Shown here piece by piece: positions 4,219-38,382 of a stretch of 38,422 nt of DNA. Source of the DNA: Octopus sinensis (taxonomy: Eukaryota). Numbering within the stretch: position 1 is the stretch's first letter; each line of letters starts with the position of its first letter. A program made the position numbers and the translations under genes. The notes under the pieces were generated by a model. The model ran no database searches. It saw only the letters and a program-made list of their open reading frames with translations, and was not told the DNA's origin. The stretch spans positions 1 to 38,422 of the forward strand of contig NW_021831894.1 in the NCBI RefSeq assembly GCF_006345805.1. Reading direction: 5' to 3'.

Positions 4219-4316
4219 AAAAGATCTGAATATATTAATGGTATTGCTGCCTAGCTAAAATAAAGCTTTGATCATCCAATGTGTGCTTACATTATTTTAA
4301 TATGATAAGATAAAAA

Positions 4317-4530
4317 GGTGGCGAGCTGGTAGAATCGTTAGCAGGCCGGGGAAAATACTAAGCTGTGCTTCATCTGTCTTTATGTTCTGCGTTCAAATTG
4401 CGCCGTGATCGACTTTGCCTTTCATCCTTTCGGAGTCAATAAAATAAATAGCAGCTGAGTCCTGGGGTCGTTGTAATCAACTTATCCCTCTCACGAAATT
4501 GCTGGCCTTGTGCTAAAATTTGAGACCAGT
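4317..4530 (+). mobile_element. Family A SINE
   Basis: ggtggcgagctggtagaatcgttag (A box)...gttcaaatt (B box)...gcctttcatcctttcggagtcaataaaat. Confidence 0.9.
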
Positions 4531-7698: not shown

Positions 7699-7795
7699 TA
7701 ATAATAATAATAATAATAATAATTATAATAATATAATAATAATAATATAATAATAATATAATAATAATAATAATGATAATAATAATATAATAATA

Positions 7796-7843
<48 letters not shown>
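7554..7843. repeat. (TAA)n microsatellite with a short inverted (TTA)n patch
   Basis: Direct reading. Confidence 0.95.
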
Positions 7844-7844
<1 letters not shown>

Positions 7845-9110
7845 GGATGCACCACCCAAAGGCAGACGTAGATCGCCTTTACCTTCCCAGAGCCCAAGGA
7901 GGTCGAGGCCTGATCCAATTTGAACTAGCTTACAAAACAACCACAATTGGACTGGCCAAATATCTCGAAATATCGAATGACTGGATGCTAAAGCTCGTGG
8001 AAAATCACGAGAGACGAAAGAAGCTTCATTCTATCATAAAGGAAAGCAAGCAATTTGCTATTGATCTCGTGCAGGATACCCAAACTGAACAACCCGAGCG
8101 AAGTACGGCAACTATTGTTGCAAAGAAGGTGAAAATGATGGCAATGAAAAAAGCGCACGAGCAATTGGCTGATAGGTGGGAGGAGAAACCTCTGCACGGC
8201 AAATATGTGACCCGCAGCAAACAAGCTGATGTTGACCAGAAGCAAACCCATCAGTGGCTACGGAGCTCAGGGCTAAAAGCAGAGAGCGAAGGTTTTATCC
8301 TGGCTGCTCAAGATCAAAGCCTATTAACCCGGAACTACCAGGCCAATGTGATGAAAAATGGAGCAGACCCAAAATGCCGATTCTGCAACGACATGATTGA
8401 AACAGTGGACCACCTAATCTCTGGATGTAAAGTCTTAGCACCAGTGGAGTATAAATTAAGACATGACAGAGTTGGCCAATATCTCCACTGGCTAATAAGT
8501 CGGCATTACAATATCAAAACTGCCGACAAGTGGTATAATCACCACCCTGAGGCTGTAACTGAAGGAGAAAATGTAACCATTCTGTGGGACTTTCCAGTAC
8601 ATACAGACCGAACCATCAAGGCCAATAAACCAGATATTGTTGTGAATGACCAAAACAATAAAGTTTGCTTATGATCGACATGAGCATCCCCTGTGATCAT
8701 AATATCTCAGCGAAAGAGGTTGACAAGCTCAGAAAATATAAAGACCTACTCATTGAAATTGAGAAAATGTGGCATCTCAAGGCGGTTACAATACCAGTGA
8801 TCGTAGGAGCACTAGGAATGATCAAGAAGGGAACCGAAAATTATATGAGAATGATCCCTGGCTTACCATCCCTGCAAGAAGTGCAAAAGATTGTCTTAAC
8901 TGGTACATCACACGTATTGAGAAGAGCATTGTCGATGTGAGAACTGTTGCTGCTCATGTATTTTAATTTAACTTTAAAAAAGAAAAAATGAACGAACTAC
9001 TGAGTTTGGTTTAATGGCCTACCAATGTATACTATGAGTTTCTTTGCCCTAGGAGTCGGGAAGACATTCGGCGAGAAATGGAAGCAAATTTGAAAGAAGA
9101 AAAAAAAAAG
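7841..9110 (+). mobile_element. Young 5'-truncated R4/Dong-type RLE retrotransposon C (post-RT region, CCHC knuckle, RLE domain, 3' UTR)
   Basis: ORFs 7847-8674 and 8665-8940: HHPKADVDRLYLPRAQGGRGL, LHGKY, AAQDQ, CRFC...HLISGC, RHDRV, LWDF, KPDIVV..IDMSIP..KEVDKLRKY, PVIVGALG; a single 1-bp frameshift near 8670 (the sister copy reads CLLVDM); flanked by (TAA)n on both sides. Confidence 0.93.
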
Positions 9111-9236: not shown

Positions 9237-10650
9237 TATCAGTTTTTTCCTCTTTCAATTTTGTTTCCATTTCTTGCTGAGTGTCTTCTCGACACCTAAG
9301 GCAAAGCAACTCACTGTGTACATTGATATGCCATTAAAATGTACATGCCAGATTCTTCATAAACAAAGTCAAGTTATGTGAAAGATATAAAAAAAAAGAA
9401 AAGGGAAGAGAAAAAGAAAAAACAAAAAAAATATTCACACGGATTGTAATCATACTCAGAGCGACAATGCTCTTCTTAATACGTGTGACGTATCAGTTGT
9501 ATATAATCTTTTGCACTTTCTACCATCAATGGTACTGCGACCGCCTTCAGGTGCTACATTTTTTCGATTTCAATCGGCAAATCTTTATATTTATATTTCC
9601 TAAGCTTGTGAAATTCTTTTGCCGAGATATTATGATCACAAGGAATACTCATATCGACCAATAAACAAACATTATTGTTTCTGTCTTTCACAACAATGTT
9701 CGGTTTATTAGTTTTGACAGTTCTGTCTGTATATGCTGAAAAGTCCCAAAGAATCGTTAGGTTTTTCCCCTCAGTCACAGCCTCAAGGTGATGCTTATAT
9801 CACTTATCAGCAGTATTAATTTTATTATGCCGACGTATGAACCAGTATACATAACGGCCCACCCCGTCATGTCTTGATTTACTGATGCTAAGACTTTACA
9901 TCTAGAGATTCTGTGGCTCACTGTTTCAATCTCATCATTGCAGAATCAGCACTTTGGGTCTACTCTATTTTCCATCACATTAGAATTAGTATTACCTAAG
10001 TCTCTAAAATATTATACAACAAACCAATCTCAACATTTAGTTTTAATTATAACAAATATGTATATTTCTAAATACATAACAGAAACATTGAATATCATAA
10101 CACCATTTATATCAAACAATCGGATCAGTAACCTTTGAGCTTGAGCAGCAAAAAAATGCCTTCTCTCTCTGCCTTTAGCCCGAAGCTCCGTAGCCTCTGA
10201 TGAGTGTGCTTCTCATTAACATCAGTTTGCTTGCTACGGGCCACATATTTGCCATATGCCTTTGTTCACGCCCTTTTATTCCTTGCCATCGATTTCACCT
10301 TCTTCGCAGCAACAGTTGCTGCACTTCCCGCATGCTCTTCAGCTTAGGTATCTTGCATGAATTCAGTAGCAAATGTTTTGCTCTCCTTCATGACAGAAAG
10401 AAGCTTCTTACGCCTCGTGATTTTCAACGTGTTCTAGCATCAAGTCATAAGATGTTTCATGATATTTAACTAGCTCAGTTGTGGTGGTTTTGTAAGAGAT
10501 TCAACCTTCTTGAGCTTTGGGAAGGTAAAGACGACCCGCGTCTGCCTTTGGGTGGTGCAACCTATTGCAAGTTAGCAGTTTACGAATTTTCCCGTCAATT
10601 TTCTTTATCTAATTGTTATTCTAGTTCACCACAACAACGCGTCCAATATG
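9237..10650 (-). mobile_element. Older R4/Dong-type copy D, same family as copy C
   Basis: TEGKNLTILWDFSAYTDRTVKTNKPNIVVKDRNNNVCLLVDMSIPCDHNISAKE; HHPKAD and IDGKIRKLLTCNR at the 5' end; 3' UTR aligns with that of copy C; AT-rich insertion at about 9990-10118. Confidence 0.9.
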
Positions 10651-16994: not shown

Positions 16995-17068
16995 CCGGGT
17001 CCGGAATTGAACTCGTAGCATTATAATCGCTAACCGAACATCCTAACCATTAGGCCATTTCCCTTCAC
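16995..17068 (-). mobile_element. Family C SINE head fragment
   Basis: ccgggtccggaattgaactc...taaccattaggccatttcccttcac. Confidence 0.7.
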
Positions 17069-17687
17069 GACTGGTTTTAGAGGGGTCCATATTTCAGAAA
17101 GAGAAAAATGTCAATGCTTGAACTAATAATTTTTGTTGCTACTGTTGTTGTTGTTATAGTGTATCTCCAGGTCGGTCGTGATTGAGCAAACCTAGAACCA
17201 AAAGACGTTACGGCCATGGACATCTCATTTCTTAATCAAGCATTGTGTATACAAAATTACATCGTCAAAACGTACATCTTTTGTTTCTTTATAAGATGAT
17301 AAGCAAGAATTTGTGGGGGATTTAGTCCCTATTTTTAGCATGTACATTTACTACGTTATCTTGATAACTAATAATAATTATTATTGTAATAATTAACAAA
17401 GGTAGAAGAAGCCGCCATGTTGTATCAAAATATATATAACATTAATATGTTAGAATACGAAAGCAAAGTGGCATGCTGGCTTTCAGGTATTCACTCGTTC
17501 TTAGCCTCTTTGGGTACAGGACTTATCGGTGGTTTTCCCCTTGCACTAAAGCTTACTGCATACTATGAGGGATCCTGAGCACTTACACTAAAAGTGTTGC
17601 TTCTCTCGAGCGACTAAACTACTGGGAGTGATTAAAAGATTTAGAAGGTTTGGTTCCCTGAATGTGCAAAGGGAATGATGTACAATC

Positions 17688-17760
17688 ATATACATACATA
17701 CATGCATAATAAATACATACATACATACATAATACATACATACATACATGCATACGTATG

Positions 17761-17815
<55 letters not shown>

Positions 17816-18117
17816 GCAAACGCACACGTAAATGCATGGACGCATACATATATCCATGCATACATACATACATACATACGTATACACATACGTACACAAC
17901 CATAAATATATTATATATATATATATATATGCACATAGAGAAATACATGCTTACATGTACGCATGTATACACGCGCACGTATATGTTAATTTATATTATA
18001 TTTGAGTATGTAAGAATGCAACGAAAATATACTTATAAGTCATTTTAGTCGAGTAATAAATACATGGCTGCGTGTACATAAATATATATATGTATGTATG
18101 CATATATATTATATATC

Positions 18118-18163
<46 letters not shown>

Positions 18164-18195
18164 GTGTTTATATATATATGTGTTTATATATATAT

Positions 18196-18232
<37 letters not shown>

Positions 18233-18342
18233 CTATATATATATATATATACATACATACATACATACATACAATATATATACATATATACACAATAATA
18301 TATATGTATGCCGATATATGTATACATGTATATATATATATG

Positions 18343-18380
<38 letters not shown>
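17688..18380. repeat. (CATA)n/(TA)n/(TG)n microsatellite field
   Basis: Direct reading. Confidence 0.9.
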
Positions 18381-18383
<3 letters not shown>

Positions 18384-18503
18384 TATATAGAAGGAGCTTC
18401 TACAGGACTAGTACTGTTTCATTCAAGAAAATCTTCAGGAAGCTTCCTGAAGATTTCTCTTGAATGAAAGTACTAGTCCTGTAGAAGCTCCTTCTATATA
18501 ATA
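18381..18503. repeat. Loopless palindrome of about 123 bp centred on AAGCTT (18440-18445)
   Basis: tattatatagaaggagcttctacaggactagtac...tcttcaggaag|cttcctgaaga...gtactagtcctgtagaagctccttctatataata; the arms differ by two small indels. Confidence 0.95.
18395..18444 (-). ncRNA. Candidate type I hammerhead ribozyme
   Basis: Minus strand reads AGCUUC-CUGAAGA-UUUUCUUGAAU-GAA-ACAG(UACUAGUC)CUGU-A-GAAGCU: 6-bp stem I, intact CUGANGA and GAAA core, stem III ACAG/CUGU, GUA cleavage triplet; stem II is weak. Confidence 0.6.
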
Positions 18504-18574
18504 ATTAATTTTACTCTGCTATGTATTGAGTACCTTACTTACTGTGTGTTAACCCGGATCAACCCGGGACCTAC

Positions 18575-18575
18575 A

Positions 18576-18610
<35 letters not shown>

Positions 18611-18659
18611 TATATATATATATATATATAATATATATATTATATATATATATATATAT

Positions 18660-18746
<87 letters not shown>
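18575..18746. repeat. (TA)n(GATA)n microsatellite
   Basis: Direct reading. Confidence 0.95.
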
Positions 18747-19208
18747 TTCATATATTCATATGTCTGTGTGTGAAAGATGTGCACGTATGAATGTATATAA
18801 GTTACACACACACACTCATGCACGCACGCACACATACACACATATTCATACGCATGTCTTTACTTATATTTAATCCAACTATATAAGTGTGTTCCTAATC
18901 TGTCTTATATAAGTGTGTAATATTCTTCTATTCAGCTAAGCACGGTTGCGTGTTCAAGTACAAAGTGGCTCTTTCTCAGAGAAATCCTACAAATGGTATT
19001 TAGTTTTACCTAATTTATTTCTCCATTGATTCCTGCCGAGCATGCACATGGATCAGATTTTTACCTGTAGCATAGCGATTGGTTTATATGTATATATGTG
19101 TGTGAGTGTATATGTATGGGGGCGGTGGCAGAGGCTTGTGAGTGTTATTGAGTGTGTGTGTGTATAAATATATATATATATCTATATATACATAGATCGA
19201 TATAAAAA

Positions 19209-19248
<40 letters not shown>

Positions 19249-19310
19249 ATATATAGGTGGATAGATAAATAAATAGATCGACATATAGATAGATAGATAG
19301 ATAGATAGAT

Positions 19311-19368
<58 letters not shown>

Positions 19369-19391
19369 ACGACAAATAGGTATATAGATAA

Positions 19392-19522
19392 GTTTCTTTA
19401 TTGGCCACACAGGGCTGCACGCAGATGGGACAACTTACAAGGTAGAGCTTTTCTTTTGGTGGAGAAAAAAAAAAGGTGGCGTAGGTTTTCGATCAAAAGG
19501 GATCGTAAAAGGGAAAAAAGGG
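19392..19522 (-). mobile_element. Probable LINE 3' UTR end (Tx1/L1-like) embedded in (GATA)n
   Basis: Reverse complement ends ttgtcccatctgcgtgcagccctgtgtggccaataaagaaac, similar to the long tail of family A SINEs; (TCTA)n lies on both sides. Confidence 0.5.
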
Positions 19523-19774
19523 TATATAGATAGATAGGTATATATATAGATAGGTATATAGATAGATAGATTGACAAGTAGATGGATAGGTAAATATACA
19601 TATACATATATGCACATATTTATGTATATTTATACAAATATACACATACACATACAAACATAGTTGTATATGCATTTATTCATACATATATTTATATATA
19701 ATTTATGTATATATTATCCAATCTATCTGTGTGTCTGTCTATCCGTCTATCTATAAATATTTATATATCTTTTA

Positions 19775-19950
19775 TCTTTTATCTTTACTTGTTTCAGTCA
19801 TTATAATGCAACCATCCTGGGGTACCGCCTTGAATCGGAAATAGTGGACCCCAGTACTAGTATTGTTTAAAGTCAGGTACTCATTCTGTCTGAATCTTTT
19901 GTTGAAACGTTAAGTGACGGTGACATGAACACACCCACACGGGTGTGGGA
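19775..19950 (-). mobile_element. Family B SINE 3' part
   Basis: tttacttgtttcagtcatt...ctggggtaccgccttgaa...gaccccagtact. Confidence 0.75.
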
Positions 19951-20199
19951 CAAAGGACTTTTTGAACCAGACAGCTACAACACTATGTGCCATGTTCTGT
20001 TTTGGTTTTGCATTTTCTTTTCTTTTAATAAGAATTGTTTGCAGAGCCAAGAGGTGTAAATGAAATATAAATTAAATCGAATATATGGAACACCTGTGCG
20101 TGAAATTCCACCCCATTCATTTCCTATGTTGCAATAAAAGAATGTAATAATCACCAGTACTTTTATTGCATTCTTACACTGCCTTAATAAACTCATTTC

Positions 20200-20870: not shown

Positions 20871-20984
20871 TACTATGTGTGAATATTATTAAGACATGGC
20901 GGGGTTCTCGGAATGCCTTTATCTGCATGTCCGTTTTAAATAATTCTCAAGGCATCTATTATTATAGGGGTTATTTTTGAAGCC

Positions 20985-21425
20985 AGGACGTAATGACAAA
21001 CGAAATACCTATTTCTTTACTACCCACAAGGGGCTAAACACAGAGGGGTAAAACTAGGACAGACACACGGATTAAGTCGATTATATCGACCCCAGTGCGT
21101 AACTGGTACTTATTTAATCGACCCCGAAATGATGAAAGGCAAAGTCAACCTCAGCGAAATTTGAACTCAGAACTAGTGGCAGACGAAATAACTATTTCTT
21201 TACTACCCACAAGGGGCTAAACACAGAGAGGACAAACAAGGACAGACAAATGGATTAAGTCGATTACATCGACCCCAGTGCGTAACTGGTACTTAATTTA
21301 TCGACCCCGAAAGGATGAAAGGCAAAGTCAACCTCGTCGGAATTTGAACTCAGAACGTAACGGCAGACGAAATGCCGCTAGACATTTCGCCCGGCGTACT
21401 AACGTTTCTGCTAGCTCGCCGCCTT
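20985..21425 (-). mobile_element. Family A SINE multimer (one head, two bodies and a stub)
   Basis: Unit tatttctttactacccacaagggg...gacgaaat is repeated at about 21009-21190 and 21192-21373; single head at 21374-21425. Confidence 0.9.
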
Positions 21426-21459
21426 CACCCCCTTCATGATGATAATAATAATAATCCTT

Positions 21460-25464: not shown

Positions 25465-25670
25465 TCTATGGGCATAAGAGCTGAAATTTTGTGGGAAGTA
25501 CCCAGTCGATTACATCGGCTCCAGTGCTTAATTGGTATTTATTTTATCGACTCCGAAAAGTTGATAGGTAAAATCGACCTCGGCAGAATTAGAACTCAGA
25601 ACGTAAAACTGAAAGAAATTCAGCTAAGCATTTTGCCCAGAGCGCTAACGGTTCTGTCAGTTCGTGCCTT
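25465..25670 (-). mobile_element. Family A SINE
   Basis: ttttatcgactccgaaaag...aatcgacctcggcagaattagaactcagaacg. Confidence 0.8.
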
Positions 25671-25729
25671 ATTTACATCTACGCATGTACAAACATATAT
25701 TACACACGCTCAAACATATATTATGTATT

Positions 25730-31236: not shown

Positions 31237-32394
31237 GCAGATTTGTATGCCTTATGTATGTGTTCTCGTGCATATAGTTACATATCTAGACATGCTCATA
31301 TATATTTAAATGATGTAGGTTCCAATGGTATTCATTGCAGTTGAGTATCATATATTCTAGGTTAAAATTTGATAAGATTAGCCAATCATTTTATAACATA
31401 CACACTCACACACACACACGCTCTCTCTCTCTCACTCTCTCTCTCTCCATCTCTTTCACACACACACGCGCGCACTCAGACACATGTAGACATACGCACA
31501 CGAATATATTACTTTGGTCAATAGCCGTTAAACCTCGAAGTCACCGTTACCACTTACCCTTGTGAACATAAGCACCAAACTTTACCCCTATGTATTGAAA
31601 GCTTCTTCGGCCAAACTTTGTCTCTATGTACATTTACACATCACACACGACACTTTATGTGTATGCTTGTGTGCATGTGAGTGTATGTGTGCATACGTGT
31701 TTATTTGTTAATACATTTAATTCCTTTAATTTTGGATCTTGGTAAATAACTACTGAATTGGAAATAGTTGATAGAGTTGAATATTTAGCTTTAAATAGAC
31801 CATATATAACACTTAGGGATTACGTCAGACTTTTATTTGTAATCCAGCTTACAAATGGAAAAAAAATTTAAAATATAAGCCGGGTAAAGTTAATAAACGG
31901 ACATTAAACGCAGTAATCCTTGAAATTAATCAAACACCCGATTTACCTTTATGAAGTAACAGTATTTCCGTTATTTATTGGCTTGGAAGCATTTGCAATA
32001 AGCATCTTCATCGATTCACCCAATTTAGTATAATCGAATTTTACCCTTCAATAACTAAATCTTTGCTTTAAAATGCACCAGTTTTCACCAGGAATTCATA
32101 TCAATCAATGATTTCGTTATTAAAATAATTATGCGTGCAATAAGATCATTGATTTCTTTCAATAATATTCTATGGCTAATGAAAGATAATTCTAATTCTG
32201 GACTCTACTAGAATTTGCTAGCTTATTGATATTCACAATTCAATTTTATCACTTGAATTTATATTGCGATTTATTGCGAATGAAAATGCTTATTACACTT
32301 AATATGCATGCTTAATAGTTAAAAAAATCTTATTGAGTTATTTGAAAGTTTACATCTGAAGATTACTGTTGATAATAATATATTACTAGCGGAA

Positions 32395-32782
32395 GGCAGC
32401 GAGCTGGCAGAAACGTTAGCACGCCGGGCGAAATGCTCAGCGGTATTTCGTCTGTCTTTACGTTCTGAGTTCAAATTCGGCCGAGGTCGACTTTGCCTTT
32501 CATCCTTTCGAGGTCGATTAAATAAGTACCAGTTACGCACTGGGGTCGATATAATCGACTTAATCCGTTTGTCTGTCCTTGTTTAGCCCCTTGTGAGTAG
32601 TAAAGAAATAAGTATTTCGTTTTGAGTACAAACTCCGCTGATGTCGACCTCGCCTTTCATCCCTCCGGGGTCGATTAAGTAAGTACCACTTACGCATTGG
32701 GGTCGATGTAATCTGCTTAATTCTTTTGTCTGTCCTTGTTTGTCCTCTCTCTATGTTTAGACCCCTGTGAGCAATAGATAAA
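32395..32782 (+). mobile_element. Family A SINE dimer (one head, two bodies)
   Basis: ggcagcgagctggcagaaacgttagc...gtagtaaagaaata|agtatttcgt, then a second body ending gcaatagataaa. Confidence 0.9.
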
Positions 32783-37604: not shown

Positions 37605-38382
37605 CTGGTACTCCATCGTTTACGACAATGACGATTCTATTTGATCCGATCAACTGGACAGTCTGCCCGTGAAATTAACGTGCATCTGGCTCAGAACTCC
37701 ACAGATATGTTACATAACTTTCCACAGACATGTTACATAACTTTCCACAGACATGTTACACAACTTTCCATAGACATGTTACATAACTTTCCATAGACAT
37801 GTTACACAACTTTCCACAGACATGTTGCATAACTTTCCACAGACATGTTACACAACTTTCCACAGACATGTTGCATAACCTTCCACAGACCTATTACATA
37901 ACTTTCCACGGATATGTTACATACTTTTTCCACAGGCATGTTACATAGCTTTCCACAGATATGTTACATAACTTTCCACAGACATGTTGCGCAACTTTCC
38001 GCAGGCATGTTACACAACTTTCCACAGACCTGTTACATAACTTTCCACGGACATATTACACAACTTTCCACAGACATGTTGCATATCTTTCCACAGATAT
38101 GTTACATAACTTTCCACAGACGTGTTACACAATATTCCACAGACATGTTACATAACTTTCCACAGACCAGTTATATAACTTTCAGGAAGATTCAGCGCGA
38201 CAAGGAAAGTGATAAGACTGGCCTTTTGAAATACAGGTACAACTCATTTTTGGCACCTGAATGGATTGGAGCCACGTGAAATAGAGTGTCTTGATCAAGG
38301 ACACAACGCGCTGCCAGGTGTCGAACTTACAACCTTATAATCTTGAGCCGAATACGTTAACCACTTAGCCACGCACCTTCAC
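37605..38382 (-). mobile_element. Family C-headed SINE split by an internal minisatellite
   Basis: Head (reverse complement) gtgaaggtgcgtggctaagtggttaac...aagttcgacacc...tgtgtccttgatcaagacactc; body continues on both sides of the array (gtgaaattaacgtgc...ctccacaga | ttcagg..attcagcgcgac). Confidence 0.8.
37699..38182. repeat. 23-bp minisatellite, 21 copies (CCACAGACATGTTACATAACTTT)
   Basis: Head-to-tail units with no spacers, counted directly. Confidence 0.97.

Follow-up and report, generated by a model that had tools for sequence, protein, structure and literature searches.

A hammerhead palindrome in Octopus sinensis as a truncated, twin-armed insertion of a Hydra-clade Penelope-like element, probably copied from a capped RNA

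Results

A twin-armed insertion in a (TA)n tract

We analysed a 38,422-nt stretch of Octopus sinensis DNA (the window; contig NW_021831894.1). A sequence-only reading had described positions 18381-18503 as a 123-bp hairpin between (TA)n tracts, built from two back-to-back hammerhead ribozyme copies, one of them apparently intact. The hairpin itself stands out clearly: its computed fold reaches -90 kcal/mol (z about -19), and none of 200 shuffled sequences folds equally well. It has no spacer, and its axis lies between 18442 and 18443 within the AGCT at 18441-18444, which agrees with the earlier placement of the axis in a stem I shared by both copies; as AGCT is common to both arms, each arm retains the 6-nt stem I strand. 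The palindrome is only part of the true insertion, which runs from 18378 to 18578 (201 bp) in (TA)n and is made up of two ends of a Hydra-clade Penelope-like element (PLE), both 5'-truncated and set back to back, with a 73-nt tail on one of them. The earlier reading missed this tail, which separates the hairpin from the right-hand tract. Element positions take the first base of stem I as +1, with the parent copy L057 as reference. The features are as follows.

18078..18377, no strand: left (TA)n-rich target tract
18378..18444, minus strand: tailless arm, element +1 to +68, 98.5% identical to parent copy L057; its outer end (18378) lies at the first fixed 3' end (+68)
18395..18444, minus strand: type I hammerhead motif with core and stems I and III intact and a 1-nt deletion in stem II
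18441..18444, no strand: AGCT overlap of both arms; its first base is the putative transcription start of the parent
18441..18489, plus strand: another hammerhead motif, disrupted by the loss of 2 nt where GAAA joins stem III
18441..18578, plus strand: tailed arm, element +1 to +141, 96.5% identical to L057 over 142 nt
18506..18578, plus strand: one-sided 73-nt tail, part of the parent 5' leader (ORF start at +183)
18579..18755, no strand: right (TA)n/(GATA)n tract

The tail contains a G+C hairpin (18553-18568) directly before the second fixed 3' end. No target-site duplication is distinguishable inside the flanking microsatellite. The 2-nt deletion after GAAA in the plus arm had been noticed before and is there; the claim of one intact copy holds for the core and stems I and III of the minus-strand motif and fails for stem II, which is 1 nt short of the family form. 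Both small deletions are private to the window copy, most family copies having two perfect arms, and they may be errors; the 2 nt absent from the plus arm are present in contigs of all four sequencing runs examined. The only contig that spans the palindrome axis does so with fewer than 31 letters per side and was not counted. The window copy has no TATA box and was likely dead on arrival, an ordinary stub.

Other repeats share the window. A 305-codon end fragment of a non-LTR retrotransposon (7757-8674, plus strand; weak zf-RVT match, E 4e-4) starts in (TAA)n, and a portion of it appears again in inverted orientation at 9661-9881. A short dispersed repeat, likely a SINE-type family, has copies at 20976-21426, 32392-32750, 4311-4484 and 25504-25675, two of them in tandem with a 183-nt period and others inverted. 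A 23-nt minisatellite of about 21 or more copies occupies 37606-38274.

The hammerhead motif

Scanning both strands of the whole window with a type I hammerhead descriptor, a check that the sequence-only reading had proposed, returned a single match, whose core starts at 18438 on the minus strand and whose predicted cut lies between 18401 and 18400. In the conventional hammerhead numbering the family form has a 6-bp stem I, a 3-bp stem II between U and U, and a 4-bp stem III, with CUGANGA, GAAA, UH and the three stems in type I order. The minus copy in the window keeps this pattern with a weaker stem II; the plus copy does not. The assignment to type I is upheld by agreement with the motif layout listed for Hydra-clade elements. 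The proposed Rfam search, by contrast, gave no hammerhead family at E<=10, either in window positions 17000-20000 or in the intact L057 copy, and the fold of the hammerhead monomer alone is not unusual against shuffled sequences (z 0.0 to -0.8). The ribozyme reading therefore rests on motif order, context and conservation.

Recurrent changes within +1 to +51, scored in 41 arms that had not been selected by their core, are confined to N7 and to loops II and III: they affect 5 of the 15 free sites, as against 0 of 36 fixed sites (p 0.001, or 0.02 for the three common changes). This pattern suggests selection on the ribozyme. Conservation of core and stems, which the earlier reading had named as a check, is thus seen, and covariation is not: there are no compensatory stem changes in a family too young to show any, and a metagenome scan for relatives found none, so that no covariation set could be built. 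Stem III is computed at -15.2 kcal/mol as a duplex and -1.4 kcal/mol as a hairpin, in line with the suggestion that it works as a dimer and with PLE hammerheads, whose stem III pairs better between two molecules. Computed folds also bear out the suggested competition between hairpin and ribozyme, as both ribozyme folds would be buried if the hairpin were transcribed in full.

A family of insertions and its parent element

A search of the 2.7-Gb genome of the same species gave 1062 candidates, and all 40 that were scored are full-length palindromes (95-100%). At each of 18 fetched loci the same extra 73 nt lie on one side and the insertion is located in (TA)n. The exact window-type junction is present in 464 copies, on many contigs and with different flanks. 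An exact 44-nt core pattern has 525 matches, which, among the matches listed (100 of 525), are mostly minus/plus pairs from 4 bp to 9 kb apart. The window palindrome is the shortest size class in a continuum of twin-armed insertions.

These counts bear on the concern, raised with the original observation, that the palindrome could be a fold-back artefact of sequencing or assembly. In favour of such an error, the window makes up an entire 38-kb contig and 1-nt indels are frequent in the copies, but the same junction recurs on chromosome-sized contigs with unrelated flanks, the tail is asymmetric and the structure is family-wide. We regard an artefact as practically negligible.

Long insertions carry the parent frame of about 715 aa, with YRDD and a GIY-YIG-type C-terminal end, interrupted by 1-nt indels in every copy read. 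This supports the Penelope origin proposed from the window alone, and the long pairs show the linkage of the palindrome to RT/GIY-YIG ORFs. Pfam and PDB sequence searches with the parent protein gave no match; in the nearest Atlas clusters (0.95-0.97) some members carry RVT_1, GIY-YIG and HTH_animal. The parent has the motifs DKT, RWR (one change from RWK), CNCxxxxxC, CDLC and CMH, one C between the GIY and YIG positions, and no CCHH. Seven copies (L057, L173, L176, L177, L181, L183 and L184) have the arrangement pLTR-ORF-pLTR, with two direct hammerheads 4.6-5.8 kb apart. This unit of 4.6-5.8 kb exceeds the length of under about 3 kb given for the clade, which the covered part of the source words as a tendency ('generally' short; PMC8557442). 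Because ORF order and motifs fit the clade definition in that paper, the parent is, by its sequence, assigned to the Hydra-clade PLEs, as a family either undescribed or unlisted.

Often a family copy has another one 0.2-1.5 kb away (L015, L061, L064, L092), either inside the (TA)n flank of the first copy or as a local duplicate. In L126 a third 3' end lies about 20 nt past the tail, and a run of A separates it from the (TA)n flank.

The earlier suggestion that the palindrome is itself a retrozyme-like unit does not fit the size continuum, the lack of a TATA box or the head-to-head, not head-to-tail, arrangement. More generally, the 200-bp palindrome might be a non-autonomous element of its own, MITE- or retrozyme-like and amplified as a unit, as its 464 identical junctions and near-identical copies could be taken to indicate. 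We find this quite improbable: in addition to the continuum of sizes, long arms and minimal insertions alike include both core variants, dozens of distinct junctions cluster at the same base, and the minimal insertion carries no promoter motif and would be transcribed into a 60-bp duplex.

Two fixed 3' ends and a 5' stop at +1

In the parent copy L057, TATAAA lies at -29, a T at -1, the predicted cut after +45 and the ATG at +183. TATA boxes are typically placed about 30 nt ahead of the transcription start. Among 89 arms with native upstream sequence, TATAAA is at -29 in 67 and at -28 in 11; genome-wide, 1708 arms have native upstream sequence. The 3' ends of the arms are fixed at +68 and +141, as a rule one of each per insertion, and 34 of 51 tailless arms end exactly at +68.

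For the 5' ends we compared 91 distinct arms from the core matches listed (100 of 525), with duplicates merged, one segmental duplicate kept and one match unfetched. Upstream sequence continues in 48 of the 91, and 43 are short; 27 of these 43 stop exactly at +1, 14 at +2 to +7 and 2 upstream. All 20 arms that abut eight A/T bases were read at -1, where the parent has T: the base is G in 15, C in 3, T in 2 and A in none. G follows eight A/T bases in the background at 5.3%, and the excess remains significant even at an assumed 25% (p = 4e-6). Five insertions carry the extra G on both arms, and one of them has a single filler base, too short for a hairpin. A further 372 matches have a non-native base at -1, after a filter that drops most window-type junctions; a hand count among the matches listed (100 of 372) gives 69 with G, many of which are attributable to microhomology or 1-nt assembly errors, so that only the 20-arm set with A/T flanks is clean. 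A weak, single-contig indication comes from sequencing run X16, where a G precedes +1 at a head-to-tail joint.

Extra G at LINE-1 5' junctions has been read as copying of the cap, in the covered part of PMC11702581. Because of the extra G at -1, the TATA spacing and this LINE-1 parallel, +1 is likely the capped start of a sense RNA that was read twice, from two internal priming sites. The openly accessible literature passages covered held no report of a cap G at PLE junctions. We also considered a splice origin of the G. The native TAG at -1 to +2 is acceptor-like, but the arms retain AG, no shared upstream exon was seen and there is no GAGGT within 700 nt upstream.

As the arms stop where stem I has its outer base pair, an alternative is that reverse transcriptase is halted by the folded hammerhead and adds the G as terminal-transferase noise. 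Against it, the enzyme would already have passed the 3' strand of stem I before reaching the stop, 48 of the 91 arms read through, G rarely precedes ends near the cut site, and a second family, described below, shows neither a sharp stop nor G at its own stem I (78 matches). Stalling is thus highly improbable as the source of the hot spot.

Two cDNAs from one source

The longer arm is the tailed one in L049, L053, L061, L062 and L065 and the tailless one in L050, L058 and L056. The arms also agree in sequence: among the window-type junctions listed (50 of 464), 26 pair CUGAAGA with CUGAAGA, 24 pair CUGAUGA with CUGAUGA and none is mixed, and private substitutions are common to both arms in 4 of 15 long insertions, some substitutions being found in one arm only. 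This concordance could reflect one RNA or two RNAs from one locus; gene conversion, or subfamilies that were active in different periods, could produce it as well.

Perfect arms with identical variants would equally be expected if a single cDNA or antisense RNA snapped back at AGCT and copied itself into the second arm. Self-priming of antisense RNA has in fact been put forward for head-to-head PLE palindromes in the covered part of PMC3846280, and several long insertions, such as L054 and L029, come close to symmetry, their tailed arm exceeding the other by a few bases, as such a route would leave them. A longer tailless arm, though, cannot arise by fold-back of a single cDNA, and L050, L058 and L056 therefore require two independent cDNAs; loops of zero or one base cannot make a priming hairpin, which excludes that step at those junctions; and single arms abutting (TA)n stop at the same base, with the extra G on the sense strand. 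We consider self-priming unlikely. For two independent cDNAs there is a biochemical counterpart: a PLE protein cuts and extends both strands in vitro, starting at two internal RNA sites that bound the tail, on an uncleaved template (portions covered of PMC11167929).

Cut-site ends, read-through copies and tandem arrays

Truncations at the +45 cut site are rare and no commoner than at neighbouring bases. Searching for a base other than A before the 3' cleavage product gave 15 matches, about 4 of them true truncations. As a control, a hand count among the matches listed (100 of 199) found 3 insertions ending at the cut, 4 one base and 3 two bases beyond it, and about 11 ending one to seven bases before it, which is no excess at the cut. 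The near-absence of such stops indicates that cleaved linear RNA is not the usual template. In one insertion (L072/L073, G000:C5:98103531) both palindrome arms end exactly at the predicted cut, with a 4-nt filler; this may be a rare copy of cleaved RNA.

Of 55 copies that run from the tail into the ORF, 30 were fetched and 20 of these reach the core; 18 of the 20, representing 14 independent insertions, extend at least as far as -33, and the other 2 stop near +1. Read-through to -33 is out of reach for a linear RNA with its cap at +1 and calls for a circle, a read-through multimer or a template jump.

Two loci contain tandem arrays with one hammerhead per unit: L143 (G000:C16:42874000-42878800) has a 251-nt unit and 8+5 cores, and L144 (G000:C9:87419500-87423500) a 425-nt unit and 3+4 cores. 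Both consist of back-to-back pLTR units within a single twin-armed (TA)n insertion, with one deletion joint repeated in both arms and the native T at -1. To judge from this sequence organisation, they are apparently retrozyme-like arrays born from a PLE. A circular template has been proposed for PLE hammerhead elements (PMC4209133, as covered) and would be the simplest account of the arrays, if a less firmly grounded step; alternatively, the arrays could have grown after insertion.

A second Hydra-type family

A second, larger and very abundant Hydra-type family was met in the same genome (L165-L172, L045:1700-3044). It has intact frames of 867-923 codons, 40% identical to the parent over 336 aa. 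Its hammerhead lies 237 nt below TATAAAA and has a long stem II and a stem III that is palindromic throughout. Its insertions have the same twin arms, with two fixed 3' ends about 155 nt apart. The hot spot predicted 29-30 nt below TATAAAA was not found: most of the 19 matches are indels and no more than 2 have an extra G. At the family's own stem I the ends are scattered. Either our guess of the start in this family is wrong, or the run-off class is family-specific.

Discussion

The account that we hold to be probable is that the window copy is a truncated two-armed Hydra-clade PLE insertion and that, at a (TA)n target cut in both strands, each strand served as primer for reverse transcription of a single sense RNA, capped and uncleaved, with run-off at the 5' end of that RNA. 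On this model +1 would be the capped RNA start and the message would open with the hammerhead as its initial 51 nt; the tailless arm would result from priming at +68 and the tailed arm from priming at +141. Both cDNAs would run off the 5' end and finish in AGCT(C), after which they could anneal through the 4-nt AGCT palindrome or be end-joined with filler; in a window-type junction both would end in AGCT and then anneal. Other axes also lie on short palindromes (TTTAAA in L144 and L029), and the hot spot at +1 may in part be sequence-driven joining, AGCT being itself a palindrome. More speculatively, copies that extend upstream of +1 and the tandem arrays may derive from a second class of template, either a circle joined at the ribozyme site or a multimer produced by read-through, and this class might be the route by which the element regains its promoter.

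These steps can be joined into a fuller cycle, which we offer tentatively, at rather less than even odds: reverse transcription would start twice near the capped 5' end of a single sense RNA, minimal insertions would be run-off products, the hammerhead would circularise RNA, allowing synthesis to continue beyond the start site and to rebuild the TATA promoter, and small circles of deleted copies would give rise to retrozyme arrays in the two arms of one insertion. Retroviral strong-stop DNA is a familiar parallel for such short run-off products.

In the portions covered of PMC3846280, PMC8557442 and PMC11167929, the origin of inverted PLE ends, the RNA strand that is copied and the role of the hammerhead are stated to be open. 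If the extra G is the cap, the template was the sense message and self-priming of antisense RNA is unnecessary. The value of the family lies in its record of junctions, which makes the questions of template and ribozyme testable; being young, it yields predictions at the level of single bases: a capped start at +1, priming at +68 and +141, a cut at +45, and circles of 251 and 425 nt.

Comparison with known systems

The comparisons below extend to the covered portions of the papers cited. Hydra-clade PLEs, including Hydra-1_Obim (Craig et al. 2021, PMC8557442), share with the parent the order of RT followed by a GIY-YIG-type domain at the C terminus, DKT, RWR in place of RWK, a CxCx5C linker, the absence of CCHH, CxxC and CxH, the (TA)n target and the hammerhead layout CUGANGA-U ... 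U-GAA. The hammerhead sequence found here matches none of the Hydra rows listed there; its stem III loop is near-palindromic and 8 nt long, as against 1-3 nt in those rows, and the unit, with a long microsatellite-rich 3' region, measures 4.6-5.8 kb rather than under 3 kb.

EN+ PLEs with inverted pLTRs and a one-sided tail (PMC3846280; PMC8557442) likewise have head-to-head truncated copies, a palindrome at the junction, a tail at one end and a TATA-like box in the pLTR, and pairs of minimal hammerheads on opposite strands are known from PLEs (PMC4209133). The tail is 73 nt here and 30-40 bp there; in the octopus family, in contrast to those elements, hundreds of copies have the same junction, placed at the first base of stem I, and 5' ends are marked by a non-templated G. 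Poseidon PAc in vitro (PMC11167929) is alike in its two fixed priming ends bounding the tail, its AT-rich target, the hairpin at the distal start and the uncleaved RNA template. It belongs to another clade, its priming sites lie inside the ORF whereas those proposed here (+68 and +141, with the ATG at +183) lie in the 5' leader, and the portions covered of that paper do not explain inverted arms.

Non-LTR retrozymes (PMC7229834; bioRxiv 10.64898/2026.07.22.740005) are head-to-tail repeats of 150-450 nt, with one hammerhead in each and expressed as circular RNA. L143 and L144 resemble them in their 251- and 425-nt head-to-tail units, each with a type I hammerhead and derived from a PLE pLTR; the window copy, being head-to-head with no tandem unit, does not, and both arrays differ from retrozymes in being single insertions inside a twin-armed PLE structure. 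LINE-1 twin priming (PMC11702581) also sets two target ends on one RNA, with joining at microhomology and an extra G at complete 5' ends; the LINE-1 halves cover different stretches of the RNA, while the arms described here overlap fully and are primed near the 5' end. The layout of an inverted pLTR with a one-sided tail is already published, and what the octopus family adds is the stop at +1 and the extra G.
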